Source of the DNA: Candidatus Saccharimonadota bacterium
GTDB lineage: Bacteria > Patescibacteriota > Saccharimonadia > Saccharimonadales > Saccharimonadaceae
Direction of reading: 5' to 3'
Assembly (NCBI GenBank): GCA_039920285.1
Contig: JBDSDX010000001.1
Coordinates: 120,001-152,000 of the forward strand
DNA length: 32,000 nt
Made by a program: the position numbers and the translations under genes. Numbering within the stretch: position 1 is the first letter of the stretch; each line of letters begins with the position of its first letter. Below, one piece after another: positions 2,630 through 24,911 of this stretch. The notes below the pieces were generated by a model. That model was given only the letters and a program-made list of their open reading frames with translations, searched no databases and was not told where the DNA came from.

Positions 2630-2638
2630 TGCTATAAT
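2630..2638 (+). promoter_or_regulatory. Extended -10 promoter (TGcTATAAT) for pilin-like gene P1
   Basis: tgctataat lies 32 nt upstream of the ATG at 2671. GAGGA (2661-2665) serves as a Shine-Dalgarno sequence 5 nt before the ATG. Confidence 0.55.
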
Positions 2639-2670: not shown

Positions 2671-3078
2671 ATGCGCAAGGTAATAAAAACAATTCAACCA
2701 ATTCTGTGGGCGATTGTTTTTGTGGCCGTTTCGGCACTTGGTATTAGTAGTAGCGTCTCTGCATACAGCATTCAAGAAGGAGTAAACGCCGCACGCGGTA
2801 CCAATCAACCGAGCGAACTCTTCGGTGCTGGTGGTGTTATCACTACTGTGACAAACACACTTTTGTTCATCGTTGGTGCCCTCAGCGTCATCATGATTAT
2901 TTTCGGCGGCCTCCGCTATGTTGTCTCTGGTGGTAACTCAACAGCCGTATCAGCCGCAAAAAACACTATCCTCTACGCGATTGTAGGGCTCGTTATCGCT
3001 TTCTTAGCTTTTGCCGCGGTGAACTTTATCCTTGGTAATCTTGAGCCCGGTACTGGCGCTGGATATACCAACATCTAA
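2671..3078 (+). CDS. T4SS pilin-like small membrane protein (VirB2/TrbC-type), paralog P1
   Basis: I prefer the ATG at 2671 preceded by GAGGA; the ORF track started at the TTG at 2659. It has a signal peptide ending SVSA|YS. Two C-terminal TM helices flank a short polar loop (LLFIVGALSVIMIIFGGLRYVVSGGNSTAVSAAKNTILYAIVGLVIAFLAFAAVNFILG). This architecture is shared with the five ORFs at 4610-6688. Confidence 0.7.
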   Translation: MRKVIKTIQPILWAIVFVAVSALGISSSVSAYSIQEGVNAARGTNQPSELFGAGGVITTVTNTLLFIVGALSVIMIIFGGLRYVVSGGNSTAVSAAKNTILYAIVGLVIAFLAFAAVNFILGNLEPGTGAGYTNI

Positions 3079-3099
3079 CATACCCTTGTCATAAAAAGA

Positions 3100-3124
3100 G
3101 GCGACCGTGAAGGTCGTCACTTTT
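3100..3124 (+). terminator. Rho-independent terminator after P1
   Basis: Stem ggcgacc / ggtcgtc (one G-U pair), loop gtgaa, followed by ac-tttt. Confidence 0.6.
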
Positions 3125-3127
3125 ATA

Positions 3128-3215
3128 TGGCGGAGGGGGAGAGATTCGAACTCTCGGTGAGTTGCCCCACTCCGGTTTTCAAGACCGGTGCACTAAACCA
3201 CTATGCGACCCCTCC
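3128..3215 (-). tRNA. tRNA-Ser (anticodon UGA), CCA encoded
   Basis: 88-nt reverse complement: GGAGGGG ... CCGGT CTTGAAA ACCGG, a long variable arm, then GAGAG TTCGAAT CTCTC CCCCTCC G CCA. The anticodon loop is CT-TGA-AA. Confidence 0.9.
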
Positions 3216-3256
3216 ATCGGGTCTACAACTTGGCTATTTTAACAGATGAGGGACAA

Positions 3257-3919
3257 TCAGTCGAGAGGTTGTCGAGCCAACGCTCCAATCCAAATCTGGC
3301 GCGCCCCAGCGTTATAGAGTAACCGACTCGCATGATCGATCGTTGATCCAGTCGTAATCACATCATCAATAATCAGATAGGGGAGGGTCGGATCAAGCCG
3401 TGAGGTTATGCGAAAAGCTGATTGTGCCTGCACGAGTCGTTTCGAACGACTCGCAAAGTGCTGTGTAGCCGTATTCCCTCGTTCTAAAACCCTTTGGATA
3501 GGAAAACCACTTATCAATGACAGTGATCGAGTAATTAACCCGATGTGATCATATCCTCGCTCCCGAATATGCGCTGGCGTCGTCGGAATTGGGACTAATA
3601 CCGTGTTCTTAGGAAGCGTGGGTAATCGGGCATAGAGAAGCTGGGCCAAATCTACCCCTGTTGCACGTTTATTTTGAAATTTAAAATCGTCAATCAACAC
3701 ACGTAACGGTCCGTGACGTATACCCACAATCCAGGCTTGTTCGTAGCGCATTTTATGGTCTAAACAGACGTTTTTTTCAGTAGCTCGTTGACAGAGAATA
3801 CATTCAGAAAACACCGTTTCTATGATGTCGTTTTTACAATCATTGCATACAGTCGTACCCATTTTAAGGCACCCAGAACAGAGGTGTGGAGCTATATACT
3901 CAAGCAGTTTATCAATCAT
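3257..3919 (-). CDS. comFC: ComF family protein (ComFC-type phosphoribosyltransferase-fold competence protein)
   Basis: N-terminal Cys clusters (CSGC...CNDCKND...CILC) and the C-terminal PRTase motif LIIDDVITTGST match typical ComFC architecture. Confidence 0.8.
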   Translation of the reverse strand: MIDKLLEYIAPHLCSGCLKMGTTVCNDCKNDIIETVFSECILCQRATEKNVCLDHKMRYEQAWIVGIRHGPLRVLIDDFKFQNKRATGVDLAQLLYARLPTLPKNTVLVPIPTTPAHIRERGYDHIGLITRSLSLISGFPIQRVLERGNTATQHFASRSKRLVQAQSAFRITSRLDPTLPYLIIDDVITTGSTIDHASRLLYNAGARQIWIGALARQPLD

Positions 3920-3950
3920 TGTGTTTTTTACGTTTCGGACCCCTATGTGG

Positions 3951-3979
3951 TTGATTATCGTTGAAGCGACCGTTATAAT
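3951..3979 (+). promoter_or_regulatory. Sigma70-type promoter for hsp20 (TTGATT-17-TATAAT)
   Basis: ttgatt at 3951-3956, a 17-nt spacer, and tataat at 3974-3979. GGAGG lies just upstream of the ATG at 4026. Confidence 0.65.
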
Positions 3980-4025
3980 ACGAGGGACTATTTGTCAAAT
4001 GAGCCTAGAGAAAGTGGAGGATATC

Positions 4026-4490
4026 ATGGCCCGCAAACAAAACGAAGATTTACTAATTGAAGATGAATTGGCTGCAGCTTTTTTGAGCGACGACGACCTT
4101 TCATCAACTGACGCACCCGCGCCAGTAACGACTGACGACAGTTGGGATGACAGCGAAGAAGAATTTCCTGGTCAACTCGCCGTTGACGTTTATGAAACCG
4201 ACGAAAAGCTCGTCGTTAAAGCTCGCACCGCAGGTGTGAACAAAGAAGAGCTCGACGTCAGCATCAGTGATGGCATCCTGACTATCAGCGGAACGCTGAG
4301 TAGCGGTGATGACACTGACGCAACCAACTGGCACATCCAAGAATGTTACTGGGGAGAGTTCAGCCGAACACTCGCACTTCCAGTCAGCGTTAGGGAAGAC
4401 GAAGTTGAAGCAGTCTTGAAAGATGGTGTCCTAACAGTCACTTTCACCAAGATCAAACAAGAACAAGCAAAGAAGATCCAAGTCCAATAA
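4026..4490 (+). CDS. Hsp20/alpha-crystallin family small heat-shock protein
   Basis: Alpha-crystallin domain pattern: QLAVDVYETDEKLVVKARTAGVNKEELDVSISDGILTISG...FSRTLALPVSVREDEVEAVLKDGVLTVTFTK. I chose the start at 4026 (MARKQNE...) because GTGGAGG precedes it. The listed 3822 start would overlap comFC and the promoter. Confidence 0.85.
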   Translation: MARKQNEDLLIEDELAAAFLSDDDLSSTDAPAPVTTDDSWDDSEEEFPGQLAVDVYETDEKLVVKARTAGVNKEELDVSISDGILTISGTLSSGDDTDATNWHIQECYWGEFSRTLALPVSVREDEVEAVLKDGVLTVTFTKIKQEQAKKIQVQ

Positions 4491-4509
4491 GACTTCCTTC
4501 TTAGTACAA

Positions 4510-4539
4510 AGAACCTCTCCTCACCGAGAGGTTCTTTTA
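4510..4539 (+). terminator. Rho-independent terminator after hsp20
   Basis: Stem agaacctctc / gagaggttct, loop ctcacc, followed by a T-run. Confidence 0.8.
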
Positions 4540-4552
4540 TTAGTGTACGCAT

Positions 4553-4590
4553 CAAAAATAAAATATCCCGGAACTAACCGGGATATTTTT
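4553..4590 (-). terminator. Rho-independent terminator after pilin-like gene P2
   Basis: Stem aaatatcccgg / ccgggatattt, loop aactaa, with T-runs on both strands. Confidence 0.75.
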
Positions 4591-4609
4591 ATACAAGAAA
4601 TTTCGTTTA

Positions 4610-5020
4610 CTATGCGCCTGGGGTGATAGCGCCGAGTACCCAGTTGACGATTGCGAAGGCCAAGAAGGCAACAACGAGACCAATCAATGCGTACATAATA
4701 GTGCTTTTCGCCGCAGTCACTGCTGTGCTGTCGCCAGCTGAGATAGTGTAGCGGATACCACCAACGATCAGCATAATAACGCTGATTGCACCGATAACGA
4801 ACAACAGTACGTTCACAACAGTGGTGAAGATTGAAGTCTCACCGAAGAGTGTGGTTGGTGTGTTGTTACCCTGGGCACAGTTCACACCGCTTCCAGCTGA
4901 TAAATCACTTGTGTTACACGCCGCACCTACTGCAGGGGCAAGAGGGCTCACCACAGCAACGAGTGCTAGGGCTGATCCGACGATCAGGGTCTTGATCGCG
5001 TTCTTTGTTACTATTTTCAT
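4610..5020 (-). CDS. T4SS pilin-like small membrane protein, paralog P2
   Basis: Signal peptide ending AVGA|AC, a Cys pair in the mature N-terminus, and a C-terminal core (LLFVIGAISVIMLIVGGIRYTISAGDSTAVTAAKSTIMYALIGLVVAFLAFAIVNWVLG) closely matching P1. Confidence 0.7.
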   Translation of the reverse strand: MKIVTKNAIKTLIVGSALALVAVVSPLAPAVGAACNTSDLSAGSGVNCAQGNNTPTTLFGETSIFTTVVNVLLFVIGAISVIMLIVGGIRYTISAGDSTAVTAAKSTIMYALIGLVVAFLAFAIVNWVLGAITPGA

Positions 5021-5056
5021 TTGGGTTAGTTTCCTTTCTTGTAGAATCTATCGTTA

Positions 5057-5085
5057 TTTATAGCAGATTAACGGTCATTTGTTAA
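5057..5085 (-). promoter_or_regulatory. Promoter for P2 (TTAACA-17-TGcTATAAA, minus strand)
   Basis: Minus strand reads ttaaca-aatgaccgttaatctgc-tataaa, with TG at the extended -10 position. AAGGAAA lies before the ATG at 5020. Confidence 0.55.
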
Positions 5086-5096
5086 GAGCTGATCCC

Positions 5097-5477
5097 TTAA
5101 ACAAACTGCGTGATGACCCAGTTGACGATTGCAAACGCCAGGAAGGCGATGACAAGCCCCGCAACAGCGTACGTCAGTGTATCTTTAGCTCGTTTAATAC
5201 GGCTCGAATCACCAGTCGACGTTGTATACATAATACCGGCAACGATAATCATAATGACCGACAGAGCACCGACAACAAAGAGAAGAACATTCACCACTTG
5301 TGTAATAGTGGTTGAGATATTATCATTTTTGTCTTTACAGACAGCTGATCCGGAGTTGTTTGCACACGCACCTTGTAGTGGGTCAACATTAATCGCGCTT
5401 GTCGCTGGAACAAGTGCCAGACTAAGCCCAAGGACGACCATGACGCCCATAATAAGTTGTTTTATACGTTGTTTCAT
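5097..5477 (-). CDS. T4SS pilin-like small membrane protein, paralog P3
   Basis: Signal peptide ending ATSA|IN, the Cys pair GACANNSGSAVC, and the core LLFVVGALSVIMIIVAGIMYTTSTGDSSRIKRAKDTLTYAVAGLVIAFLAFAIVNWV. Its start directly abuts the P4 stop. Confidence 0.7.
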   Translation of the reverse strand: MKQRIKQLIMGVMVVLGLSLALVPATSAINVDPLQGACANNSGSAVCKDKNDNISTTITQVVNVLLFVVGALSVIMIIVAGIMYTTSTGDSSRIKRAKDTLTYAVAGLVIAFLAFAIVNWVITQFV

Positions 5478-5780
5478 TTAAAATCTCCCAATCACGAAGT
5501 TAGTAATAGCAAATGCTGACAGAATAATAACTAAGCCTGCGATAGCGTAGAGTATTAGGCCCTTAGCTTTAGTGAGCTTGCCCGCATCACCTGCAGAAGT
5601 AGCGTACGAAATACCAGCAACGATAATGACAATCACCGCAATGGTACCGCCGACAAAATAGGCGAGATTAAGTCCATTTTGAAGGAGTTCGTCACCCGTG
5701 GTAGTAGGGAGGTTCTGAACATCTCCCGGTCCCGTACCCTGGGTAAGTTTTTGTGCAAATTGTACCAAAAAATAATACAT
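5478..5780 (-). CDS. T4SS pilin-like small membrane protein, paralog P4 (no obvious signal peptide)
   Basis: Core YFVGGTIAVIVIIVAGISYATSAGDAGKLTKAKGLILYAIAGLVIILSAFAITNFVIG is homologous to P1-P3. The N-terminus MYYFLVQFAQKLTQGTGPGD lacks a classical h-region and AxA site. Confidence 0.6.
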   Translation of the reverse strand: MYYFLVQFAQKLTQGTGPGDVQNLPTTTGDELLQNGLNLAYFVGGTIAVIVIIVAGISYATSAGDAGKLTKAKGLILYAIAGLVIILSAFAITNFVIGRF

Positions 5781-5784
5781 ATAG

Positions 5785-6261
5785 TTATCCGTTAATCAGC
5801 TTAAATATTAAGTTAGTCACACCAATTGCCGACATTGAAATTGCCAAGCCAATCACCGCATGAAGAATGGTGAGTCGAGCTTTTTCGATCTGCGCAGGAA
5901 CACTTCCGCCTGTGAGGTATTGGAAACCTCCAAACAATACGAAGAAGAGGGCAACATATCCCACCAAGAAGAGGGCGATCTCGATAACATTCAATACAAT
6001 ACGCCAAATGAAGGTGCTGAGACGCGCGCCCGAATCGGCACCGAGTCTTGGATCACTCGGTGACCATATCTCACAGCTAGCGCCTGCGCCATCTGTCAAA
6101 CCTCGATACCATACTGGCATACCAAGGATACGATTCTCACACCCAGGGGCGGCGGCAAACGTTGTCTGCGGAACAGCGACTGTCATCACTGGAGCAGCGA
6201 TGAAAACAGCAAATGCGAGAGTAATAAATAATTTTTTAAGTAATTTCGTTTTTATAATCAT
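5785..6261 (-). CDS. T4SS pilin-like small membrane protein, paralog P5 (divergent)
   Basis: I prefer the ATG at 6261 (MIIKTKLLKK...), 1 nt after the P6 stop; the track's 6273 start is a TTG. It has a signal peptide ending TFAAA|PGC and a Cys pair. The two-TM core is LFLVGYVALFFVLFGGFQYLTGGSVPAQIEKARLTILHAVIGLAISMSAIGVTNLIF. Confidence 0.6.
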   Translation of the reverse strand: MIIKTKLLKKLFITLAFAVFIAAPVMTVAVPQTTFAAAPGCENRILGMPVWYRGLTDGAGASCEIWSPSDPRLGADSGARLSTFIWRIVLNVIEIALFLVGYVALFFVLFGGFQYLTGGSVPAQIEKARLTILHAVIGLAISMSAIGVTNLIFKLING

Positions 6262-6262
6262 A

Positions 6263-6688
6263 TTAATTAGCAAATAGTCCGCCTGGTATTAAGAAGTTAA
6301 GCAACGAATACATCAACGCGTACGCAATAACACCAATTACTATATTAGTAATGATCTGCATAGCCTTCTTAACCTGTTCCGGACTGCCTCCTGCCGACGT
6401 ATACATAATAGACGCATAGACGATACCCGCAACCGTCACAATACCAACGCCAGCGGTTAGGATGTTGATAATAAGGAGTAAGATGCCCCAAGCACCAGTT
6501 CCCTCAACACCGCCCGTACCATCTTGAGTACAGCTAATGACCCCTGTTTCAACACCCCCACAACAGTTCGTCTGGGCTGAAGGAACACAGGTCGCGCCAA
6601 CACTCGCAGGGATAGCGATAAATGACGCCAATCCGATAATTAAAGTAGCGCCAACGATGAACTGTTTTACTTTTTGTTTTATGTTCAT
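6263..6688 (-). CDS. T4SS pilin-like small membrane protein, paralog P6 (divergent, 4 Cys)
   Basis: Signal peptide ending SVGA|TC, four Cys residues (TCVPSAQTNCCGGVETGVISC), and the core ILTAGVGIVTVAGIVYASIMYTSAGGSPEQVKKAMQIITNIVIGVIAYALMYSLLNFL. Confidence 0.6.
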   Translation of the reverse strand: MNIKQKVKQFIVGATLIIGLASFIAIPASVGATCVPSAQTNCCGGVETGVISCTQDGTGGVEGTGAWGILLLIINILTAGVGIVTVAGIVYASIMYTSAGGSPEQVKKAMQIITNIVIGVIAYALMYSLLNFLIPGGLFAN

Positions 6689-6752: not shown

Positions 6753-6781
6753 TTGCATTTTATCACTTTTTGTGGTACAAT
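6753..6781 (+). promoter_or_regulatory. Sigma70-type promoter heading the plus-strand T4SS-like operon (TTGCAT-17-TGgTACAAT)
   Basis: ttgcat at 6753-6758, a 17-nt spacer, tacaat at 6776-6781, and TG at 6773-6774. This places the first two in-frame ATGs of the listed 6753 ORF inside the promoter. Confidence 0.6.
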
Positions 6782-6839
6782 GACATCAAACAATCAAAGA
6801 TGCCAATACTATTATTCCAAAGGATATATAACCATCACT

Positions 6840-7785: not shown

Positions 7786-10700
7786 ATGAATAGGCGGCTT
7801 TTAAAGAAATCGTTATTGCTCCGGCTTTTTGTTGCCCCTATGATTGTGGCGATGATTATTTCATCAGGTTTCATCGGTGCACTTAATCAAGCAAATGCCG
7901 CACTAAAAGCGACCGCGATGACTCCTGAGGAGAAAATCGAATCAGCACTCCTCTATAGATCAGTTGGTATTTGTTTGAAGAATGCTGGATTGAGAGACGG
8001 TGATGGCGTGTCTCTCTCTCGTATCAAAGAATCAAATGCTAAAATTGGTGCTTGGTTCAACGATCGTGCAAATGGCAAAGAGGGCGTCGCCCCTATTGGT
8101 GCTTATATGCGCGACACCGTCCAGAAACTACCAGGCGTTGGTGATGACTACAAACTTGACTGTGACCAACCGGAATTCATCCTTAAAGCCCTCAACTTAT
8201 GGAAACCTGGTGAAAATGGGGCGGACAATGGCCTGACACTCCTCTGTAATGCTGGCTTTGTTCGCACAAACCACAAAGATGATACACCCGCATCATGTAT
8301 TGCTGGGACGGGTGACCTCGAACGAAAGGCTGACTACAGTAACTTCAATACAGTGTACGGAGCACAGGGTAACGACAAGAGTGCTGGTCTATATGAGAGT
8401 TATATTGGAGGTCTCATTTACAACGCTGGTGGCTCAACCAACCCTATTGATGGCTGGAACTCGGTCGATTGGTACTGGTACTATACAAAGACATTCAACT
8501 GGAGCTGTGGCTACGGCAAAATGAAGAGCTCGCAAGCACTTAAATCCGAAGCTGAGGCAGGGGGAGGTGATAAAGCTTATAATATATGGAAAGCTCAGAA
8601 CGATGGAACAGTAACTAAGAGCCAATGGTATGTCGGCTTACTTGCCAAGACTGAGTCAGTTATTGTTCGGCCAAACGACGCAAGGACAAATCAAGACTAT
8701 ACAAAAACTTGTGAATTTATAGCTGGGCAAATAAATCGTTTTGCCCAAGATTATGCGACCTACAGTCTAAATAAAGTAGTGACCGCAAACTGTACAGCTA
8801 AGGGCTACAAAACACCCGACCTCGTGCCTTGTATCAATGGTGGTATCAACAGAAATAGTGACGGAACAATAAATGCACTGTACTGTGCAGACACCTACAA
8901 AACTGACCCTGCCTTAGCTGCCTGTAAAGCAGGTGCCACAACTAATGTTTCAGGCTCTGCCGAGGAAGCAGCCTCTACAACCGGTGTTGACAAGCCAGGC
9001 ACAGCCGACCAACCTTGTGAAATCGATGGAGCGTTGGGTTGGGTTATATGTCCGGCGATCCGATTCTTAGCAGGTGTCAGTGACGGGGTATTTACCTTCC
9101 TTGCTGATAGTCTTCTCAAGGTTGATCCAAAAATCTTAGCTAGCGGCACCGCTAACCCAACGTATAATGCCTGGATTATTATGCGCAATGTCGCTAACGT
9201 TGCCTTCGTTATTGTGTTCTTAATTATTATCTTCTCCCAATTGACCGGTGCAGGTATTACAAACTATGGTGTAAAGAAAATGCTGCCAAGGCTCGTCATT
9301 GCGGCCATATTAGTGAATCTGTCTTATTTTGTGTGTCAAATCGCAGTAGATCTTTCCAATATCTTAGGTTATTCCGTGAAAGGAGCCCTTGATGCGATAG
9401 GGGAAAATATCGCCAGTGTTAATGCGGTCGTAGGACAGACCAATGCTTCAAACCCCGACTTCGTTGGTATGACAAACAGTGCACTTGGACAGGCAGGTTC
9501 AGTGCTCCTGCTTCTCTCTATTCTCATACCAATCATGATAGCGGGGCTTATTGCAATTATTATCATCGTGTTTATGTTAATTGGACGACAAGCGATTCTT
9601 GTTATGCTAATCGTTATATCACCGCTTGCATTCGTCGCATTCCTATTACCAAACACACAAAACTTATTCACTCAGTGGCGTAAAATTTTTACGACGCTTC
9701 TCATGATGTTTCCGATTATATCGGCAGTGTTTGGTCTCTCAAGCTTAACGTCAACTATCCTTGCGGGTGCATTTACAGAAAACGCAGATGGGGGAGTTCC
9801 TGGTTTTATTAATCAAATCCTCGCAGCGGGCGTTCTCGTTCTACCACTCTTCCTTGTCCCAATGATCCTCAAAAAATCACTTGATGGTATTGGTTCGATT
9901 GGTGCCGCAATGAATGCCGCCGGCAACAAGGCTCGTAGTGGTGCAAACGCTGTAAAGGGTGCCGGAAAGAGCCTCGCAAAGACCGGAGCCAATGCTGGTC
10001 TCGGACGTTTAGCGAATACGAAGTTTGGTGCATCAAGAGGTGGGCGAATACTGGGTGGTATTGCTTCAGGTAAAGGTCGTCGTGGTTTTAGCGCAATGGG
10101 TGAGGCGCATGAAGCACAGACTAATAAAAATATTCAATCGCAATGGCAACGAGATGGCACCTATAACAACAGCGCAAAGCTTGAAAGTATCGCCAAAAGT
10201 AAGCCAAACTCGAGCGAAGGCCGAGCGGCTATGCACGCATTATCATCAAAGGGTGATGCGAACGAGCTTTCACGTGTTCGCCGCCATTTAGACTCAACGG
10301 GTAATACAGAAGGTATGAAAGCATTACAGCGTGCCACCGATTCAAACTTCTCAGCTCTTAAAGCCAAAAACCCGAGTGCGGTTCAGCCTATGAAACACAG
10401 CGACTGGGGCAATCTCAAAGCTGTTGAAACCTTTGGTATGAAGGATGAAGCAATTACTGAAGGTATCGCATCAAGCCCACAATTTGCACAAACCGTTAAG
10501 GCCGCGGCTCTTGATCCGCTCACTGCGAGAAACTACTCTGCCGATACTATTGCCTGGGCAAAGGGTGGCGTCCTTCCTGGTGGAGGTTCGACGAGTCCTG
10601 CTGGTCAAGCAAACCACAACGCCGCCGTTGCTGCTGGCATGAAATCGTCATCAGGCGGGCCTGCAAATATCCCAGGTGGAGGCAATCCTATTGTTACTCC

Positions 10701-11355
10701 TGGAGCTGGTGCAGCACCTGCACAACCAACACAGCCACTCGTTACTCCAGCTAGCGTTGCGGCAGCAACCGCTGCCTCAACCTCAACAAGTACAGTAGGG
10801 GATGGAAGTCGTCGTGTCGTCACCACACAAGGTGCACCAACGGCAGGTCCAACTATCGTCAATGGTATGCCGACTGGCGTCATGACGGCAACATCAACAG
10901 CCTCAGCACCTCCAACAACGACTGTTACTATGAACTCTTCAGGTGGTCGTCGGGTAACAACTTCATCGCCGAGCGCCGCTGCACCGACAACCGTAGCCGC
11001 ACCTGCAGCACAAGCTGAAAATATTGACCTACAAGTTACACACGATACCGCTCCAGCGGCTCCAGTTGCCTTTGGCTCTGGTGGTGCAAGTACGACACCT
11101 TCGAAACCTTCTCGACGAGTCCAAAGTACTGATGGCGCCTTTATTGTGAATGGTGGAGGAGAAACAACAGTTGCTATTAGACAAGCGCCCGTCGTTAGCG
11201 CTGCTGATTCTCAAGCTTCAGCTCGTGCCGCAGCCGTTGCAGCTGCAAAGAATGAACAATCGGGTGCCGGTGCCCGGGGGAGTAGTGCTGATAGTTCAGG
11301 CTTCCGTGCTCCAAATGGTGCCGGTGACGACTACCAAGACGGCATGAACAAATAG
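7786..11355 (+). CDS. Large polytopic membrane protein, VirB6/TrbL-like T4SS channel candidate, with Cys-rich N-terminal ectodomain and long low-complexity C-terminal tail
   Basis: 1189 aa. The signal peptide ends NQANA|AL and is followed by a ~400-aa Cys-containing soluble domain. A block of roughly 6-8 TM helices spans about nt 9040-9890 (VANVAFVIVFLIIIFSQL..., LVIAAILVNLSYFVCQIAV..., LLLLSILIPIMIAGLIAIIIIVFML..., ILVMLIVISPLAFVAFLL..., LLMMFPIISAVFGL..., AGVLVLPLFLVPMIL). The C-terminal ~490 aa end in an A/P/T/S/G-rich region. The VirB6 call rests on topology and operon position next to the PrgI/VirB4 genes. Confidence 0.5.
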   Translation: MNRRLLKKSLLLRLFVAPMIVAMIISSGFIGALNQANAALKATAMTPEEKIESALLYRSVGICLKNAGLRDGDGVSLSRIKESNAKIGAWFNDRANGKEGVAPIGAYMRDTVQKLPGVGDDYKLDCDQPEFILKALNLWKPGENGADNGLTLLCNAGFVRTNHKDDTPASCIAGTGDLERKADYSNFNTVYGAQGNDKSAGLYESYIGGLIYNAGGSTNPIDGWNSVDWYWYYTKTFNWSCGYGKMKSSQALKSEAEAGGGDKAYNIWKAQNDGTVTKSQWYVGLLAKTESVIVRPNDARTNQDYTKTCEFIAGQINRFAQDYATYSLNKVVTANCTAKGYKTPDLVPCINGGINRNSDGTINALYCADTYKTDPALAACKAGATTNVSGSAEEAASTTGVDKPGTADQPCEIDGALGWVICPAIRFLAGVSDGVFTFLADSLLKVDPKILASGTANPTYNAWIIMRNVANVAFVIVFLIIIFSQLTGAGITNYGVKKMLPRLVIAAILVNLSYFVCQIAVDLSNILGYSVKGALDAIGENIASVNAVVGQTNASNPDFVGMTNSALGQAGSVLLLLSILIPIMIAGLIAIIIIVFMLIGRQAILVMLIVISPLAFVAFLLPNTQNLFTQWRKIFTTLLMMFPIISAVFGLSSLTSTILAGAFTENADGGVPGFINQILAAGVLVLPLFLVPMILKKSLDGIGSIGAAMNAAGNKARSGANAVKGAGKSLAKTGANAGLGRLANTKFGASRGGRILGGIASGKGRRGFSAMGEAHEAQTNKNIQSQWQRDGTYNNSAKLESIAKSKPNSSEGRAAMHALSSKGDANELSRVRRHLDSTGNTEGMKALQRATDSNFSALKAKNPSAVQPMKHSDWGNLKAVETFGMKDEAITEGIASSPQFAQTVKAAALDPLTARNYSADTIAWAKGGVLPGGGSTSPAGQANHNAAVAAGMKSSSGGPANIPGGGNPIVTPGAGAAPAQPTQPLVTPASVAAATAASTSTSTVGDGSRRVVTTQGAPTAGPTIVNGMPTGVMTATSTASAPPTTTVTMNSSGGRRVTTSSPSAAAPTTVAAPAAQAENIDLQVTHDTAPAAPVAFGSGGASTTPSKPSRRVQSTDGAFIVNGGGETTVAIRQAPVVSAADSQASARAAAVAAAKNEQSGAGARGSSADSSGFRAPNGAGDDYQDGMNK

Positions 11356-11399: not shown

Positions 11400-12329
11400 A
11401 TGGCAGAGTATAAGGTTCCGCAGGATGTCGAGGCGGATGACAAACTAATTGGACCGTTCAGTTTTCGGCAGTTTGTTTACCTTATCATCGTTGCGCTTGC
11501 TGGTGCTGCCGCGTGGGGATTAGGCCAGCTTTTTATTCCGTTAGCGATCATCCCACTCCCTGTTATTTTACTGTTTGGTGCGCTCGCCCTACCACTTCGA
11601 AAAGATCAACCGATGGAGATCTATCTTGCAGCAATGATTGCATTTTTCTTGAAACCACGTCGACGATTGTGGGATCCGGATGGCATCGAATCATTAATTG
11701 AAATCACGGTTCCAAAAGTTGTCGAAGCGCAACTGACGAAAGATATTACTCAAGCTGATGCCGACCAACGTTTTGGCTACCTTGCCAATCTTGTCGACAG
11801 TCAGGGCTGGGCTGTACGTGGACAGGGGATGCAAAACGGACCTATCAATAGCGACATCTACCTCGAGGCTCAAGGTGCAAATGATCTGCTCGACGGAAGC
11901 AACCCTATTTCACAGTCATTCAGTAATATGATGATAGATAGCGACGATCGTCGTCGTCAGGAAATGATTGATCGTATGCATCAACAGGCCGCTGCAGCTG
12001 CACAGCCAGTCACACCACCAACTCCTTCGACCTTTACGACACCTGACCCACCGACACCTATTTACAACCCGTACCCAACCGAGATTCAGCAAGCCGTCAT
12101 TCAGCCGATTAGTGCGGATCCGTTTGCGACACAACCAACACTGCCAGTTACCCCAGTTATTCCAGATGTTCCGATTCCTCAAACCACTAGCGATAACCCT
12201 GTATCTGCTGGTATAATGAATCTTGCAAACAATACCGATTTGTCGATTGAGACAATTGCGCACGAAGCAAACCGTATCCAGCAGCAACAAGATAATATGC
12301 AGGAAGAAGTGGTTATCTCTCTGCGATAA
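11400..12329 (+). CDS. PrgI family (VirB3-like) T4SS membrane protein with Pro-rich C-terminal extension
   Basis: The N-terminus MAEYKVPQDVEADDKLIGPFSFRQFVYLIIVALAGAAAWGL, followed by a second TM helix, matches the PrgI-family signature as I remember it (Y.VP.d.e.eDKi.g.ft.rQ). It lies immediately upstream of VirB4. The C-terminal half is P/T/Q-rich. Confidence 0.65.
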   Translation: MAEYKVPQDVEADDKLIGPFSFRQFVYLIIVALAGAAAWGLGQLFIPLAIIPLPVILLFGALALPLRKDQPMEIYLAAMIAFFLKPRRRLWDPDGIESLIEITVPKVVEAQLTKDITQADADQRFGYLANLVDSQGWAVRGQGMQNGPINSDIYLEAQGANDLLDGSNPISQSFSNMMIDSDDRRRQEMIDRMHQQAAAAAQPVTPPTPSTFTTPDPPTPIYNPYPTEIQQAVIQPISADPFATQPTLPVTPVIPDVPIPQTTSDNPVSAGIMNLANNTDLSIETIAHEANRIQQQQDNMQEEVVISLR

Positions 12330-12366: not shown

Positions 12367-13257
12367 ATGCCGCCGAATAATCCATTTTTTACGACACCGT
12401 CCGCACCTCCAGGACAACCTCCGGCAGCGCCGTCTCCTTTTGGTACGCCGCCACAACCGGTTGCACCAATCGTAGCCGCTCCTGTCGCTGCTCCTCAAGC
12501 CGCTGGCTCGGGAGCGAACACTCCAACCAAGGCGACACCTCGTAACCCGAACTCAACTCAGAATACACTCCAGCTATCTGAAATCCGTGACAACATGGTC
12601 ATCATGGCTGATGGGACGTTCCGTGCCGTTGTCTCATGTCGTTCGATCAACTTCGATCTTATGAGTGAACGCGAGCGTGAAGGAGTGGAGTATAGCTACC
12701 AAAGCTTCCTTAACTCACTGACATTCCCTGTCCAAATCGTCATTCGCTCAGAACGGGTTGATATTGGTCCGTACATTGAACACCTTCTTTCATTACGTCG
12801 TGGCCAAGACAACATGCTTCTTGGCGTATTGATGGACGATTATATTAACTTTATCGACGTCCTGTCTCAAGAAGCGAATATCATGGAGAAATCTTTCTAC
12901 ATTACCGTCCCATTCTATCCACAAGGTGATATCTCTAGTATCGTCGAGCAGAGCAAGGGCTTCTTCGGCAAACTCATGTCAAAACCAAAAAATACCATTA
13001 CTAAGATTGATAAAGTCGCATACCAAAAAGCCAAAGATGAAATCAAGAATCGCATTGAAGTGGTTATCTCTGGTTTGGCTGCCATTGGTGTTCAAAGCGT
13101 TCAGCTCAATACAAAAGAGTTGGGTGAGCTGTATTACAACTTCTACAACCCCGATACCGCTGTTCGTCAGCCGCTAGGTAACTTTGATAATCTCACTAGT
13201 ATGTACACCAAAAAAGCTGATCCAAGCACTGCTCCAACCTCAGGAGGAATACTGTAA
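12367..13257 (+). CDS. VirB4 N-terminal-domain-like protein (putative split-off N-terminal module of the T4SS ATPase), Pro-rich N-terminus
   Basis: After ~65 P/A-rich residues it reads LQLSEIRDNMVIMADGTFRAVVSCRSINFDLMSEREREGVEYSYQSFLNSLTFPVQIVIRSERVDI. This resembles the extreme N-terminal region of Gram-positive-type VirB4 proteins (PrgJ/TrsE/Orf16-like). There is no Walker motif. Its stop overlaps the next start as TAATG at 13255-13259. Confidence 0.45.
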   Translation: MPPNNPFFTTPSAPPGQPPAAPSPFGTPPQPVAPIVAAPVAAPQAAGSGANTPTKATPRNPNSTQNTLQLSEIRDNMVIMADGTFRAVVSCRSINFDLMSEREREGVEYSYQSFLNSLTFPVQIVIRSERVDIGPYIEHLLSLRRGQDNMLLGVLMDDYINFIDVLSQEANIMEKSFYITVPFYPQGDISSIVEQSKGFFGKLMSKPKNTITKIDKVAYQKAKDEIKNRIEVVISGLAAIGVQSVQLNTKELGELYYNFYNPDTAVRQPLGNFDNLTSMYTKKADPSTAPTSGGIL

Positions 13258-15098
13258 TGGCACGAAAACCAACCGCAGCTGAAATTGCCAATCAACAACG
13301 CGCCAAAGAGCAAGCTGAAGTCGACCAAGCCTTTGCTAAGGGTGTCACCACTCTTCGTGATTTGATTGCACCAAGTAGTATTGAAATTACGAGTTCGTAT
13401 TTCCGCCTCGGAACCAAATATGGTCGTACGATTTATATCTACGGCTATCCTCGCCAGATTTACACTGGTTGGTTAAGTGGCCTCATTAATATTGATGAAG
13501 TTCTTGATGTCAGCATGTTCATCTATCCTGTCGACAGCCAAGTCGTCTTGAATAACTTGCGTAAAAAAGTAACGCAACTCGAAGCAAGCACGTCGATCAA
13601 TAACGAAAAAGGGAAGACCCGTGATCCTGGACTCGAAGCAGCTATTAACGATGCTGAAGAACTTCGTGACCAACTCCAAGTTGGCGCCGAGCGTTTCTTC
13701 CGTTACGGTCTGTATGTCACACTGTACGCCGATAGTGTTGAAGAGCTTGATTTCGTCCAACACAAAATTGAAACAATGTTCGGTCAGCAACTTGTCTTTA
13801 GCAAGGTAGCAAGTAGCCAACAGGAACAAGGCTTGAACAGTACTATTCCTCAAATGACTGATCAGCTTCAGATTCGTCGCAACATGAACACTGGCGCAAT
13901 CAGCACCAGCTTCCCATTCACGAGTGCCGACCTCACCCAAGATAAGGGAATTCTCTACGGCATCAACATGCACAACAATGGTCTGGTTATCTTCGACCGT
14001 TTTAGCCTCGAGAATGCCAATATGGTTGTCTTCGCGAAGTCTGGTGCAGGTAAATCATTTACTGTGAAGCTTGAAGCCCTCCGTAGCATGATGACTGGGA
14101 GTGAAGTGATCATCATTGACCCAGAAAATGAATACCAGAAGTTGTCTGATGCTGTCGGGGGAGCGTACATTCGCTTAAGTCTTAACTCGGCAACTCGTAT
14201 CAATCCATTTGATCTTCCTCGTGTGATTGATAATGATGAGGCTGACGACGCACTACGCGCCAACCTTGTGACACTACACGGACTATTCCGTCTCATGCTC
14301 GGTGGAACACAGGTTGCCAGTAATGGTGTCCCGATTTCATCACTCAATCCAGTTGAGGAAGCTGACCTCGACCAAGCTCTGATTGATACGTACGCACGTG
14401 TTGGTATTACCAGCGACCCACTGACACACAACTCGCCACCGCCAACCATTTCTGATCTTTACGATACCCTTCTTCATATGGGTGGAACTGGTCCTGGACT
14501 CGCACAGCGACTCCGTAAATATACGACAGGAACATTTGCTGGTATCTTTAGTCAACAATCAAATATCGACATTAATAACCCGATGGTTGTCTTTAATATT
14601 CGCGACCTTGAAGACGAACTGCGTCCAGTCGCAATGTATATTGTCTTGAGTCACATTTGGAACATTACCCGAACCGAGAAAAAGAAACGTATGCTGATCG
14701 TGGACGAGGCGTGGCAATTGATGAAATACGATGACTCGGCAAATTTCTTGTTTAGCCTCGCAAAGCGCGCTCGTAAATATTACCTTGGTCTCACCACCAT
14801 TACCCAAGACGTTGAAGACTTTATGGGAAGCAAAATGGGTCGTGCGATCGTTGCCAACAGTTCAATGCAACTTCTTTTGAAGCAATCTTCAAGTGCAGTT
14901 GATGTTCTGTCGGATGTCTTTAAACTCACTGAAGAAGAGAAAAAACGTCTGGCGAACTTCCCGGTCGGACAAGGACTCTTCTTCGCTGGACAAAACCATG
15001 TTCACATCCAAATCCAAGCCAGCCCAACCGAAGCACAGCTTATTACCACGAACCCCCAGATAGCAACTCAAAACCCCGACGGAACCTCGGGCGTATAG
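13257..15098 (+). CDS. virB4: VirB4-family T4SS ATPase (PrgJ/TrsE-like)
   Basis: Walker A AKSGAGKS (14034-14057) and Walker B MLIVDEA (14691-14711). Upstream is the VirB4-type region DLIAPSSIEI...GRTIYIYGYPRQIYTGWLSGL. Motifs IIDPENEY and TTITQDVEDF are typical of VirB4/TraC-class ATPases. Confidence 0.85.
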   Translation: MARKPTAAEIANQQRAKEQAEVDQAFAKGVTTLRDLIAPSSIEITSSYFRLGTKYGRTIYIYGYPRQIYTGWLSGLINIDEVLDVSMFIYPVDSQVVLNNLRKKVTQLEASTSINNEKGKTRDPGLEAAINDAEELRDQLQVGAERFFRYGLYVTLYADSVEELDFVQHKIETMFGQQLVFSKVASSQQEQGLNSTIPQMTDQLQIRRNMNTGAISTSFPFTSADLTQDKGILYGINMHNNGLVIFDRFSLENANMVVFAKSGAGKSFTVKLEALRSMMTGSEVIIIDPENEYQKLSDAVGGAYIRLSLNSATRINPFDLPRVIDNDEADDALRANLVTLHGLFRLMLGGTQVASNGVPISSLNPVEEADLDQALIDTYARVGITSDPLTHNSPPPTISDLYDTLLHMGGTGPGLAQRLRKYTTGTFAGIFSQQSNIDINNPMVVFNIRDLEDELRPVAMYIVLSHIWNITRTEKKKRMLIVDEAWQLMKYDDSANFLFSLAKRARKYYLGLTTITQDVEDFMGSKMGRAIVANSSMQLLLKQSSSAVDVLSDVFKLTEEEKKRLANFPVGQGLFFAGQNHVHIQIQASPTEAQLITTNPQIATQNPDGTSGV

Positions 15099-15117: not shown

Positions 15118-18100
15118 ATGGGGCCCCAAGACAACGACGAAAATAACCCAGGCCAACAAAATGCTGACAGAACGTTTGGCTCAGACTCGCGAGATCTTAG
15201 AGGTGCCGAGGATACCGGTAACTGGAAAACACGAGTAGGAGATACTGCAAGGGATGCTGCACAAGACGTCGCCAAAAAAGCTCTAAGAAAAACAGAAGGC
15301 GAAGTAGCGGAAAAGGTCGCGGCTAAAGCAGGAGCAAAAATGGCGACAAAACTGGCCGCTGGAGCAGCAACAGGGGTTGAAACGGCTGGTGTCGGAGCTG
15401 CTCTCGCTGTTGCTGATATTCTTCGAGATAAAGATACGCGCAATCTTCTTGCCAAAAAGATCCTCCCTGTTATTATTGGTCTCGTGATTCTCATAACCGG
15501 TGGTGCAATTGGCATTATTTTGACTGGTCTCCTCGCGCCAATTGCTTTTTTCGATACACTGTTTGATGATTTAAATGACCAAGTACCGGCGCTCGACATG
15601 CGTAATCAAGCAGCACTTAATAACATGGTACCGAACAACGTCAAGGCAGCAGCACTCGATACATGTAAGAGCTCTCCAGAATCAATCATCTGTCGTTCTA
15701 GGACGTTGTCTGAAACCCAAATCACACGACTTCAACGCGCCGGTATTGAGGTGAGTGGGGATAAATACGGAGATAGGCTATTACCAACATCATACACATT
15801 CAAAGATAAGTCGTACGATCCCAATGAATTTGCCAAAGCCGTTCAAAATGATGATACCTTACGACTCGCATACAAACGTGCTTTCAATATGAAGGTGTTG
15901 GGTTTTAGTGACGCTTCGTTTGTAGGCAACACGCTGACGCGTTTCGGTGGTTCAAAACAAGCACCAGATCTTCAGGGGAGTCATGAAGATAAAGTAAATC
16001 AACTTATTAACCGACAAAAGGCGAGTAACGCTGACGGATCTGCAACAGACAAAACTTCAACAATTCCTGCCGACGCTGTCTTTGTACCTGTAAAAACAAA
16101 TGATGACGGTACCCCGGCTGAAGGTACTACCTACACACTAAAAGGAAGTACGTCCGGTGAAGAGTTTACTCAGGCTGACGTCGATAAGGTTAATGCAGCT
16201 AAAACAACAACTCCTTCCGGTGACACTCCTCCGACTCAAATCGGCGATCTTATAATCGGAAGTGCCAGTGCTTTTGGTTACTGGGACCTTGCTTGCACAG
16301 TTAAAAGTATGGTGGCGGCGGCATCGTTGTCTGCAAAGGTCGCAAACCAATCGGCAATCGTGAATTATGTCCAACCAGTGGCGGCGCTCGCATATAAAGC
16401 AAAGGCAGGAGACATATCGGTGAGCGATAGTCAGGTACTCGCTGAATATTTCAACAAAACTGATAATCGAAAACAGATTGAGTCGCCGGCGGCGAGTTAT
16501 GAAAATGCGACTATTGATGGGACAACAATTAAACCGGAATCTGGAAGTAGTAAGCTGATCGATAACCCAAATTATGGGAAAACCGCACTGGATTCACCGT
16601 TATTTAAAATGTCTCTCAATGGTGGAAGTAACCCTGGTACGACCGTTGCTGATAGTCAGTATGGGCTCGGTGTCAGTGTGAAGTCATTATTTGGTGGCAC
16701 ATCGAGTGCCGCCTCGGATACGATTGATGCTCTCAATAACGTCGGAAGTACGATAGACGACGCAACCTGTGCGGTTGTGCAAAACCCTATTGTTCGAGGA
16801 GTTGGTCTTATCTTTGGTTTATCTGGTGGGTTAATTACAGGTGCCGGAACGCTCGCCATAAAACTTCCTGTCTTGATCAACCTCGCGAACGGTGCGGTGA
16901 CATTAAATAAAATTATTCAAAACGGCAAAGCTGGTGCGGTCATCCCAGATAACCTCAGTGATTCTCCAGCCGACCTCGGAACACTGAGTTGGAACTATGT
17001 CACTGCTGTGTCTGGTCAAGCAGCTCAAAATAGAGGCCTTACCGGTGGAAACGCTCAGGAAGTCTTGGCATACCAAAAACTTGGTGCACAAAGTAAATCA
17101 GATTATATCGCTATTGAACAACAAGACACCAGTCCGCTCGATGCAACAAGTAAATACTCATTCCTCGGATCCCTCCTTTTGACACTTTCAACTATGACAA
17201 CGTCGCAGTTTAGTGGAAGCTCTTCACTTCGCAATATAGCGGGTATTGTTGCAGGGAGTGCTGCCGCAATCGTAAAACCGGCGAATACGTATGCTGCCAC
17301 TATCGATCCGGGTCGATTCGAACACTGTGACGACGTTGCCTATTCAAATGTCGGCATCAGTCCAGATGTCGAATGTAATATTCGTTATGTTATGTCAGCA
17401 GAAGATCTCAACCTCGACACCTATGATGTTCAGAAGGCAATGGGAAGTAGTGCGTGTGGCGGAAATGCCTGTGTCGACACCCTCACCACAACGGGATATC
17501 CTGATGGGTACTCACCAGTCGACCCTACATCTGTTCAGAAGTTTGCTGATAGTTTTATAAAAGGAAGTGACCCAACACTCTATGCCGATCGATTGAGCTC
17601 TGGTGTATATGATAACGACTACGCCAAATTCCTTGATTTCTGTGCATACCGTGCGCTCCCATATGGACAAACCTATGACCTAACAGGCCTCGATGAGAAA
17701 TGGCAAACGGGTGAGATATGTAAAACTGCTGGTGCCCCCTACAGTTACTACCGTGTGTACACACTCGATAACACAGCTCTCGAAGCACGCGACAAAGTCT
17801 ATGATTTTGCATCATCTCCACAAGGTAGTTTAAGTACAGGACGCCCAGAAAATACTGATGACTATGGTAACGGCTGGATCCTCCGTAACGGTGTTGATTA
17901 CTCATCATTCCAGTGCGATCCTCGAACAACTGATGCTGGAAAATACACAAACCCCGATCGTGGCTATACGATTCGTGTTTGCGACACAAAAATAGCCGGA
18001 ATTAAAACGACAACCAACGCACTCGTTTCAACAAATTTCATGAATATGTATGAAGCGGCAAAGAAGGATGGTATTACATTCTTCCTAGCTGAAAGTCTTC

Positions 18101-18387
18101 GTAAAAATACAGATCAATATTACAGTGCTCAGTCGCGACACAGTATGGGTCTCGCGTTCGACCTTGGATCATCCCAAAACGGAAACGGAAGTTGGTGTTA
18201 TTCTGGTCCTGCTGGTGACCTTGGTGGGGCAATAGCTTGTCGTTCAAGGACTGGTGCGGCTGGTGATGCTGTTCGCTGGATGGATGCACATGCTGCCGAG
18301 TATGGATTCCAAAACCTCAACAACGAGCCATGGCACTGGTCAACTGGTGAATCTGGTGGTCAATTTAACACGAAGAAGTTGCAGTAA
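15118..18387 (+). CDS. Large membrane-anchored extracellular protein with C-terminal VanY/M15-type (LAS family) peptidoglycan peptidase domain
   Basis: 1089 aa. One TM helix lies near aa 115-150 (ILPVIIGLVILITGGAIGIILTGLLAPIAFF). The ~800-aa central region has no motif I recognise. The C-terminus carries SRHSMGLAFD (18133-18162; SxHxxGxAxD) and EPWHW (18325-18339; ExxH), which are the zinc ligand motifs of D-Ala-D-Ala carboxypeptidase VanY/M15 enzymes. Confidence 0.6.
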   Translation: MGPQDNDENNPGQQNADRTFGSDSRDLRGAEDTGNWKTRVGDTARDAAQDVAKKALRKTEGEVAEKVAAKAGAKMATKLAAGAATGVETAGVGAALAVADILRDKDTRNLLAKKILPVIIGLVILITGGAIGIILTGLLAPIAFFDTLFDDLNDQVPALDMRNQAALNNMVPNNVKAAALDTCKSSPESIICRSRTLSETQITRLQRAGIEVSGDKYGDRLLPTSYTFKDKSYDPNEFAKAVQNDDTLRLAYKRAFNMKVLGFSDASFVGNTLTRFGGSKQAPDLQGSHEDKVNQLINRQKASNADGSATDKTSTIPADAVFVPVKTNDDGTPAEGTTYTLKGSTSGEEFTQADVDKVNAAKTTTPSGDTPPTQIGDLIIGSASAFGYWDLACTVKSMVAAASLSAKVANQSAIVNYVQPVAALAYKAKAGDISVSDSQVLAEYFNKTDNRKQIESPAASYENATIDGTTIKPESGSSKLIDNPNYGKTALDSPLFKMSLNGGSNPGTTVADSQYGLGVSVKSLFGGTSSAASDTIDALNNVGSTIDDATCAVVQNPIVRGVGLIFGLSGGLITGAGTLAIKLPVLINLANGAVTLNKIIQNGKAGAVIPDNLSDSPADLGTLSWNYVTAVSGQAAQNRGLTGGNAQEVLAYQKLGAQSKSDYIAIEQQDTSPLDATSKYSFLGSLLLTLSTMTTSQFSGSSSLRNIAGIVAGSAAAIVKPANTYAATIDPGRFEHCDDVAYSNVGISPDVECNIRYVMSAEDLNLDTYDVQKAMGSSACGGNACVDTLTTTGYPDGYSPVDPTSVQKFADSFIKGSDPTLYADRLSSGVYDNDYAKFLDFCAYRALPYGQTYDLTGLDEKWQTGEICKTAGAPYSYYRVYTLDNTALEARDKVYDFASSPQGSLSTGRPENTDDYGNGWILRNGVDYSSFQCDPRTTDAGKYTNPDRGYTIRVCDTKIAGIKTTTNALVSTNFMNMYEAAKKDGITFFLAESLRKNTDQYYSAQSRHSMGLAFDLGSSQNGNGSWCYSGPAGDLGGAIACRSRTGAAGDAVRWMDAHAAEYGFQNLNNEPWHWSTGESGGQFNTKKLQ

Positions 18388-21290: not shown

Positions 21291-21291
21291 A

Positions 21292-22392: not shown

Positions 22393-22669
22393 TGTGTTAT
22401 TCCTTCCTTATCTTTCCTTTTTGTTCTTAATAATAGGGGCTGTGGAAACTGGGTATAAGTGATGTATTAACAGATCTAAAACGTGATTTTTTTGAGTGGA
22501 AAGGTGTGGAGATAAAACGGGGATAAGAGTTGGTAAGTAGGGTGAGTTATAGACAGTAAGAGATGTGTTGTGGGTGGAGATACTAGAAACAGGGGATAGA
22601 ACCACACTCTTTATACCCCCAAGTTTCCCATAGGTGTACACATTTTTTACCCAGGCAGTAAGTATAGTT
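22393..22669. other. Putative oriC segment 1 (dnaA-dnaN intergenic): DnaA-box-like repeats plus AT-rich stretch
   Basis: 277-bp non-coding gap. DnaA-box-like motifs: TGTGGAAAC (22441-22449), TGTGGAGAT (22505-22513), GGGGATAAG (22519-22527), GTGGAGATA (22574-22582), GGGGATAGA (22592-22600). An AT-rich tract lies at 22401-22436 and the palindrome TGTACACA at 22635-22642. Confidence 0.6.
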
Positions 22670-24037: not shown

Positions 24038-24055
24038 GTGTCTGTATACTCCCAT

Positions 24056-24865: not shown

Positions 24866-24911
24866 TATAATAACTATCAAGTAACCCCTCTTTAGAGGCC
24901 ACAAAACCATA

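Follow-up and report, generated by a model that had tools for sequence, protein, structure and literature searches.

The closest described counterpart of the locus treated here is a type IV secretion system (T4SS), that of Southlakia epibionticum ML1 (Se ML1; genes SEML1_0006-0019), which was found by transposon sequencing to be essential for epibiotic growth (Wang et al. 2023, Cell). Within it, SEML1_0014-0019 encode six PF18895 pilins that are all individually essential according to the tables of that study, and SEML1_0011 is entered as 'Type IV secretion system protein' on the strength of a structure search (Table S2). SEML1_0019 is followed by genes for Hsp20 and ComFC (K02242), a tRNA-Ser, a hypothetical gene and, on the opposite strand, a non-essential 'pilin', SEML1_0024 (Wang et al. 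2023). Here we describe six genes, P1 to P6, that very probably encode VirB2-like pilins, five of them in a tandem array, in a stretch of 32,000 nucleotides (the window; positions 120,001 to 152,000 of contig JBDSDX010000001.1, assembly GCA_039920285.1) from an uncultured environmental metagenome-assembled genome (MAG) of the Saccharimonadales.

Arrays of this type are widespread. McLean 2018 gives the first mention of such arrays with the signal-peptide protein array of TM7x, and Quinonero-Coronel et al. 2025 list, for 383 assemblies of Patescibacteria, 441 arrays with 2-11 genes each, at a mean identity of 25% and a maximum of 54%, located near dnaA and accompanied by no relaxases; proximity of the T4SS to the replication origin is reported for many Patescibacteria. 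A 2025 T4SS review describes the array in Saccharibacteria and treats a pilus as a possibility, a 2024 perspective calls the role of the T4SS 'completely unknown', and monoderm T4SSs are held to be generally without pili (Wang et al. 2023; Quinonero-Coronel et al. 2025). The novelty that an earlier note on this DNA had implied for the array is not supported: the same array appears in McLean 2018, Wang et al. 2023, Quinonero-Coronel et al. 2025 and the 2025 review. The kind of array is already known, and the window adds another instance of it and no new kind of system.

Identification of the six pilin genes

The six open reading frames (ORFs) comprise P1, alone on the plus strand, and P6-P5-P4-P3-P2, which look like one operon on the minus strand:

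2671..3078, plus strand: pilin P1, 135 aa, outlying member of the P1/2 class, two transmembrane (TM) helices, 0 Cys
4610..5020, minus strand: pilin P2, 136 aa, last gene of the array, ectodomain with 2 Cys, two TM helices
5097..5477, minus strand: pilin P3, 126 aa, conserved Cys pair, two TM helices
5478..5780, minus strand: minimal pilin P4, 100 aa, two-helix hairpin, 0 Cys
5785..6261, minus strand: pilin P5, 158 aa, two TM helices, invariant Cys pair, WYRGL motif
6263..6688, minus strand: pilin P6, 141 aa, first gene of the array, most divergent, ectodomain with 4 Cys, two TM helices

We are highly confident of both the orthology of the six and their membership, as diverged VirB2-like pilins of a T4SS, in this family. 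With the Pfam profile PF18895 (T4SS_pilin, gathering threshold 26.6 bits), P1 to P5 scored 32.8, 38.5, 48.2, 40.2 and 27.9 bits and passed, P6 alone falling below with 19.1 bits; P6 is counted as a family member because it matches P3 over its full length by BLASTP at E=1e-14, and P5 matches P6 at E=6e-05. The TrbC/VirB2 profile PF04956 (threshold 27.9 bits) was passed by P3 with 33.7 bits, P4 stayed below it with 24.0 bits, and no match to it was found for P1, P2, P5 or P6; 11 of 24 homologs in which P5 and P4 are fused (see below) also matched it at E<=0.001. In NCBIfam, five of the six pilins scored best against the Mbov_0395 pilin-like conjugal transfer protein NF045849, always under its cut-off of 40 bits, with P3 highest at 36.2 bits and the others at 18.6-32.1 bits or without a match. 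Pairwise identity among P1-P6 is 23-56%, P1 and P2 sharing 50%, and a hidden Markov model (HMM) built from the six paralogs revealed no seventh copy among the window ORFs of at least 50 aa.

These results bear out most of what the earlier note had proposed from the letters of the sequence. Its six homologous paralogs with two TM segments are present, at the coordinates it gave, as ORFs whose homology, by PF18895 and BLASTP, lies beyond chance, and its assignment of them to VirB2-like pilins agrees with the profile search and with the adjoining genes for PrgI/VirB3, a TrsD-like protein and VirB4; no significant match was obtained to the unrelated holin or stress-protein families that it had named as examples of an outcome speaking against this assignment. 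The counts of 0, 2, 2, 0, 2 and 4 Cys for P1 to P6 were correct on recount, and its view that the DNA is too diverged for recent duplication or cassette recombination is upheld by a repeat search, in which similarity between copies was limited to 62-72% across some 75 nt of their cores; both processes were rejected on this basis. The claim of a signal peptide on every copy needs amendment: hydropathy analysis predicted a signal-peptide-like segment and two TM segments for P1 (cleavage predicted between VSA and Y), P2, P3, P5 and P6, but only two hydrophobic segments, and no signal peptide, for P4. By the same analysis the proteins follow the VirB2-type plan of a leader, two helices and a short positively charged loop, with P4 having the helices without the leader.

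The start of P4 lies 4 nt past the P5 stop. Its short N-terminus is common to the 43 aligned P4 homologs, P4 homologs in general are with few exceptions 94-105 aa long, and free P4 carries a conserved N-terminal segment, MxYFLLQFAQK. AlphaFold2 modelled P4 as a helical hairpin with helices at 29-60 and 66-97 (pLDDT 79.5). P5, with the largest ectodomain of the array, has a longest ORF starting at TTG 6273 (5785-6273); the most likely start is ATG 6261, which yields a protein of 158 aa that the database contains unchanged as ABIP50_00700, and with this start P5 and P6 do not overlap. Five of the six proteins, together with the 158-aa form of P5, match a Candidatus Saccharimonadales MAG exactly (tags ABIP50_00665 to ABIP50_00705 on a 795-kb contig, P1 being ABIP50_00665 and P2 ABIP50_00685), and in the source record the annotation 'pilin' is attached to P3 only.

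Comparison with described systems

Judged from the gene table, the locus is orthologous to the Se ML1 pilin array that is essential for epibiotic growth. Both contain tandem PF18895 pilins of similar sizes, of which the third gene encodes a protein of ~100 aa without a signal peptide; in both the array is divergent beside VirB6-like, PrgI, TrsD and VirB4 genes close to dnaA, and both show the succession of array, Hsp20, ComFC, tRNA-Ser and an extra pilin on the opposite strand, P1 standing in the place of SEML1_0024. Se ML1 differs in having six array genes against five in the window, a second VirB6-like gene beside the array (SEML1_0013), which the window lacks, and a hypothetical gene of 1392 nt (SEML1_0023) before the outlying pilin, likewise not in the window. 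Essentiality is known for Se ML1 alone, the window coming from an uncultured environmental organism.

The window also agrees with the Patescibacteria arrays catalogued by Quinonero-Coronel et al. 2025 and the TM7x array of McLean 2018, which consist of divergent, tandem, origin-proximal VirB2-like genes near virB4 without a relaxase: it has a tandem of five PF18895 genes (identity among the six pilins 23-56%) by a virB4 cluster and near dnaA, and among the cluster ORFs scanned no match above threshold to a relaxase or coupling protein.

With the canonical VirB2/TrbC/TraA pilins the six proteins share small size, a leader, two helices, a short basic loop and genes encoded together with VirB3, VirB4 and a VirB6, which in the window is putative. 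Canonical diderm systems have one pilin gene, a homopolymer and usually a VirB5 tip, whereas the window encodes five to six paralogs and no VirB5, in a monoderm. The Mycoplasma protein Mbov_0395 (NF045849) is likewise a small VirB2-like two-helix protein of a monoderm T4SS, but it is single-copy and belongs to a conjugating mobile element, and the window proteins score below its cut-off (36.2 vs 40). The VirB2 families of Anaplasma phagocytophilum and Bartonella resemble the array in comprising tandem, diverged copies in a host-dependent bacterium, and are interpreted as antigenic or host-interaction variants. Unlike these, most positions of the window array are conserved one-to-one, and their counterparts are individually essential in the model species Se ML1; of the paralogs, only the P1/2 class varies in number, so that interchangeable copies turning over from one related genome to the next are not what is seen.

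Conservation of the array in related loci

Related loci were obtained from 80 species-level Saccharimonadales genomes by means of VirB4 (84-96% identity), their upstream flanks were searched with the six-paralog HMM, and each match was classed by its best match to P1-P6. Complete arrays were present in 26 loci, the window included, and followed the operon order P6-P5-P4-P3-(P1/2)n with n = 1-5. By best match the order was fixed in 23 of the 26; the other three have a protein of the expected length that scored marginally better against P2. P6, P5, P4 and P3 are single-copy with one-to-one orthologs, and copy number varies in the P1/2 class only. Given this fixed order and the one-to-one orthologs, the paralogs are older than the radiation of these genomes. 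Linkage of the pilins to VirB4, PrgI and TrsD is kept in dozens of genomes. Two loci have larger arrays, with 8 pilin genes in L073 (690-4091) and 7 in L076 (701-3978), and there the extra copies all belong to the P1/2 class and lie at the distal operon end.

Pilin orthologs are 35-88% identical, compared with 84-96% for VirB4, and even in the closest genome, whose VirB4 is 96% identical, the pilins reach 67-88%. Identity is lower in the ectodomains (0.30-0.43) than in the cores (0.50-0.70). The Cys pair is retained in 23-24 of 24 P3 orthologs and in 33 of 33 P5 orthologs, and C43 and C53 of P6 are retained in 33 and 30 of 37 orthologs, respectively. The comparison of copy number and N-termini with relatives that the earlier note had suggested thus gave ectodomains that diverge faster than the cores and a copy number that varies only in the P1/2 class.

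Fusion of P5 and P4

A single in-frame ORF with two pilin domains, P5~P4, replaces the separate genes in 6 of the 26 complete-array loci:

Locus L003, 2692-3408: P5~P4 fusion
Locus L007, 2767-3477: P5~P4 fusion
Locus L023, 3187-3918: P5~P4 fusion
Locus L024, 2632-3438: P5~P4 fusion
Locus L038, 2971-3672: P5~P4 fusion
Locus L057, 2694-3386: P5~P4 fusion

The fusion was also present in 24 of the 120 listed clusters of P5 homologs (24 clusters among proteins P0109-P0213), which come from independent metagenomes. The fused proteins, found in about a fifth of relatives, are 224-268 aa long and lack the MxYFLLQFAQK segment of free P4. In a VirB4 neighbour-joining tree, which is not robust, fused forms are interspersed among split forms, a pattern that suggests repeated fusion or fission. 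The AlphaFold2 model of a fused homolog (pLDDT 69.9) comprises a signal helix, a small beta-hairpin in which the Cys pair lies, and a further two hairpins. Topologically the fusion makes sense, since P5 is predicted to end, and P4 to begin, on the outside; it implies that the two are probably neighbours in the assembly. No mention of it was found in the accessible sections of the published array accounts (Quinonero-Coronel et al. 2025; McLean 2018).

Predicted promoters and operon structure

The following regulatory elements were recognised around the pilin genes:

2630..2638, plus strand: extended -10 element TGCTATAAT upstream of P1, read from the sequence
3100..3118, plus strand: terminator-like hairpin after P1
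4560..4589, minus strand: strong intrinsic-terminator-like hairpin (12-bp stem and T run) after P2, ending the pilin operon
5057..5085, minus strand: predicted promoter inside the operon, TTAACA-N17-TGcTATAAA, located in the P3-P2 spacer of 76 nt, with the Shine-Dalgarno sequence GAAAGGAA after it
6757..6786, minus strand: promoter-like site with extended -10 upstream of P6, candidate operon promoter by consensus match only

The motif TTAACA-N17-TGnTATAA has a single match in the window (5057-5085, minus strand), with 0.02 expected by chance, and this promoter and the GAAAGGAA ribosome-binding site are conserved in 16 aligned spacers (L001-L053). In 2.74 Mb of related loci the motif occurred 35 times; 24 of these sites precede a P1/2-class gene by 30-75 nt, and no site lies upstream of P3-P6. 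The spacing of the genes follows the same division, the gaps from P6 to P3 measuring -4 to +8 nt and P1/2-class genes each standing behind a spacer of 53-140 nt. The TGCTATAAT element, 32 nt upstream of the P1 start, is of the TGnTATAA type found in the P2 promoter, and a P1 Shine-Dalgarno sequence, GAGGAA, lies at 2661-2666. The P2 promoter was found only by aligning orthologous spacers, since a -10 hexamer with a final A had escaped the generic scan for promoters.

Searches of the window against Rfam returned three tRNAs only; besides these, neither the P3-P2 spacer nor any other part of the window gave a structured RNA. The tRNAs, all on the minus strand, are tRNA-Arg(GCG) at 1548-1624, tRNA-Ser(GCT) at 2452-2544 and tRNA-Ser(TGA) at 3128-3215, the last two flanking P1.

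The T4SS neighbourhood

The array is divergent from a plus-strand T4SS cluster made up of the following genes:

7786..11355, plus strand: polytopic membrane protein, 1189 aa, putatively VirB6-like
11400..12329, plus strand: PrgI-family (VirB3-like) protein, PF12666 47.3 bits
12367..13257, plus strand: TrsD-like protein similar to the N-terminal region of VirB4, with NCBIfam matches (TrsD; VirB4 N-terminal) that fall short of the curated cut-offs
13257..15098, plus strand: VirB4-type ATPase, NCBIfam CD1110 378 bits (cut-off 325), Pfam TraG P-loop and AAA_10
15118..18387, plus strand: large protein (1089 aa) with a C-terminal VanY-type peptidoglycan peptidase domain, PF02557 27.8 bits
18387..19622, plus strand: secreted lysozyme-like hydrolase, VirB1 analogue, PF18013 Phage_lysozyme2 93.8 bits

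The VirB4 and PrgI/VirB3 genes lie within 8 kb of the pilins; from the array to virB4 the distance is 6.6 kb, and dnaA is 7.6 kb beyond virB4. The 1189-aa protein had no Pfam or NCBIfam match, and its position and size, which match those of SEML1_0011, point to a VirB6-like platform. Cys is abundant in its N-terminal part, and it ends in a low-complexity tail of ~300 aa rich in Ala, Thr, Pro and Gly. The TrsD-like gene corresponds to the essential SEML1_0009 and the VanY-domain gene to the essential SEML1_0007. No relaxase or type IV coupling protein family scored above threshold among the cluster ORFs scanned. The lysozyme-like gene is followed by a gene for a PEGA-domain protein and then by recF, dnaN and dnaA, about 1-4 kb beyond the T4SS cluster (20244-24055, minus strand), after which come rnpA, yidC and a Jag-like KH/R3H gene (24506-26323, plus strand). 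The T4SS is placed next to the replication origin because recF/dnaN/dnaA, rnpA and yidC adjoin it.

On its other flank the array is bordered by genes for Hsp20 (3822-4490) and a ComFC-like protein (3257-3919), then by tRNA-Ser (3128-3215) and P1. In the longest ORF (3822-4490, plus strand) the Hsp20 domain is confined to residues 123-222, which puts the true start probably near 4030 and would make the overlap with the ComFC-like phosphoribosyltransferase gene (3257-3919, minus strand) artificial. Between P6 and the T4SS cluster, an ORF divergent from P6 (6753-7718, plus strand) showed no family match, has a lipobox-like LAGC after a hydrophobic stretch and appears to correspond to the non-essential SEML1_0012; it is here that Se ML1 carries its additional VirB6-like gene, SEML1_0013.

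Farther away, the left edge of the window contains a gene for a DUF4352 protein (86-502, plus strand) and two adjacent NUDIX hydrolase genes (551-1078 and 1094-1513, minus strand), and a SucD/SucC-like CoA ligase pair with CoA_binding, Ligase_CoA and ATP-grasp_2 domains is encoded at 28800-30723 (minus strand). A reduced genome of this kind is expected to be without a tricarboxylic acid cycle, and the pair may be an ADP-forming acyl-CoA synthetase for substrate-level ATP synthesis.

Proposed model and alternatives

We consider it probable, with moderate confidence, that the six genes constitute the VirB2-like pilin set of a chromosomal, origin-proximal, monoderm-type (MPF-FATA-derived) T4SS that builds a heteromeric conduit. 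P6-P5-P4-P3 would be one tightly coupled operon of single-copy, non-redundant specialised subunits, and P2 with the separately encoded P1, under their own conserved promoters and a strong ribosome-binding site, would provide the bulk subunit. P1, P2, P3, P5 and P6 would enter the membrane via Sec signal peptides and take up a topology in which both termini are outside and TM1 and TM2 are joined by a short basic loop in the cytoplasm; P4 would be inserted alone or, in those relatives that have the fusion, as the C-terminal half of P5~P4. The VirB4, PrgI and VirB6-like machine, together with the two cell-wall hydrolases, would then extract the subunits and build from them a heteromeric pilus-like conduit, on whose surface disulfide-stabilised, fast-evolving N-terminal ectodomains would contact the host bacterium.

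P2/P1 are proposed as the bulk subunit because theirs is the only class that varies in copy number and the one that has a class-specific promoter and Shine-Dalgarno sequence; non-redundant subunits of one assembly are favoured because of the fixed order, the one-to-one orthologs, the fusions and the essentiality in Se ML1. The two functional readings in the earlier note are thereby separated, the comparative data favouring a major subunit with specialised minor ones and disfavouring alternative filaments. A division of labour between bulk and specialised subunits nevertheless seems to us slightly short of an even chance, and an extended filament less probable than that. More tentatively, the system might be an obligately heteromeric VirB2-type structure in a monoderm, with P6, P5+P4 and P3 specialised and P2/P1 as the shaft, an idea to which we give roughly one chance in three. 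P6, the P5+P4 pair and P3 would here act as initiator, tip or adaptor subunits in a defined complex, replacing the missing VirB5, and the copy-number-variable P2/P1 class would polymerise as a shaft with a host-specific surface. No statement of such a division between initiator, tip or adaptor and shaft was found in the accessible literature on these arrays. If it is true, the recurrent P5~P4 fusion would for the first time provide 'Rosetta-stone' evidence that VirB2 paralogs contact one another as ordered neighbours.

Several points weigh against the heteromeric conduit or limit the case for it. In no Patescibacterium has a pilus built from these proteins been seen, and the reviews call a pilus a possibility. 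The orthology with Se ML1 comes from gene order, sizes and table annotations, not from aligned sequences. P2 as the major subunit rests on analogy, and it is P3 that scores best against the pilin profiles; the P1/2-class promoter is a sequence motif, not measured expression. The VirB4 neighbour-joining tree behind repeated fusion lacks robustness. Comparison with solved pilins was uninformative: there was no sequence match to them in a profile search of the PDB with the six-paralog alignment, which returned only a chance match to SecY (E=2.3), and a Foldseek comparison of the P4 model with the PDB gave nothing at E<=0.001 and generic helical hairpins only.

The strongest competitor, which we nonetheless judge unlikely, holds that the six proteins are T4SS components without an extended pilus, forming within the monoderm T4SS a short channel or stalk across membrane and cell wall, like the small pilin-like proteins of Mycoplasma integrative and conjugative elements. 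That monoderm T4SSs are generally without pili, that the best NCBIfam relative is the Mbov_0395 protein of a wall-less Mycoplasma and that no T4SS pilus has been reported in Saccharibacteria (2025 review; 2024 perspective) all agree with it, and a fixed set of single-copy subunits suits a defined complex. The NCBIfam matches, however, are below the cut-off, the P1/2 class, with its dedicated strong promoters and expanded copy number, looks like a subunit required in large amounts, and the disulfide-containing, fast-evolving ectodomains suggest exposure to a partner cell.

Less likely again is that the paralogs are interchangeable variant pilins, which would give the same filament different surfaces and thereby serve host-range breadth or antigenic variation, a reading proposed for the VirB2 arrays of Anaplasma and Bartonella and, by Quinonero-Coronel et al. 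2025, for Patescibacteria. It accords with ectodomains that diverge faster than cores, with the 1 to 5 P1/2-class genes per array in different genomes and with the non-essential outlying P1-type gene of Se ML1. It is opposed by the single-copy P6, P5, P4 and P3, which keep their order and one-to-one orthologs across species-level genomes, by the individual essentiality of all six Se ML1 array genes, which redundant variants would not show, and by the P5~P4 fusions, which imply co-assembly; moreover, the repeat search of the window found no DNA repeats able to drive cassette exchange. Variation among interchangeable pilins thus fits the P1/2 class and not the fixed, individually essential positions P3-P6.

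It is highly improbable that the resemblance to pilins is superficial and that the proteins belong to some family of small membrane proteins outside type IV secretion, for example holins or stress proteins. Two-TM hairpins are common and Foldseek could not separate P4 from other helical hairpins, but the specific matches are to T4SS_pilin and TrbC/VirB2, and no Pfam match to a holin, a stress protein or another small membrane protein reached significance (E above 0.001). Dozens of genomes, moreover, keep the pilin genes linked to VirB4, PrgI and TrsD, and in Se ML1 the counterparts are essential just as the T4SS genes are.

Against this published background, what is new is modest in weight: the class-specific promoter, the P4 without a signal peptide and the repeated occurrence of P5~P4 fusion. 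These details make the reading with a major and several minor subunits testable. Positional orthology, a member without a signal peptide and a class-specific promoter were not found mentioned in the accessible sections of Quinonero-Coronel et al. 2025 and McLean 2018.

Implications

The Saccharibacterial T4SS is, to our knowledge, the only T4SS known to be essential for the growth of its bearer, and among its features none is as unusual in a monoderm system as the pilin array. The four-part pattern of fixed positional orthologs, a member without a signal peptide, recurrent P5~P4 fusion and a promoter specific to the P1/2 class leads to testable predictions as to which paralog is made in bulk and which are neighbours, and these predictions could be used for genetics, cryo-electron tomography and proteomics in the cultivable TM7x and S. 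epibionticum.

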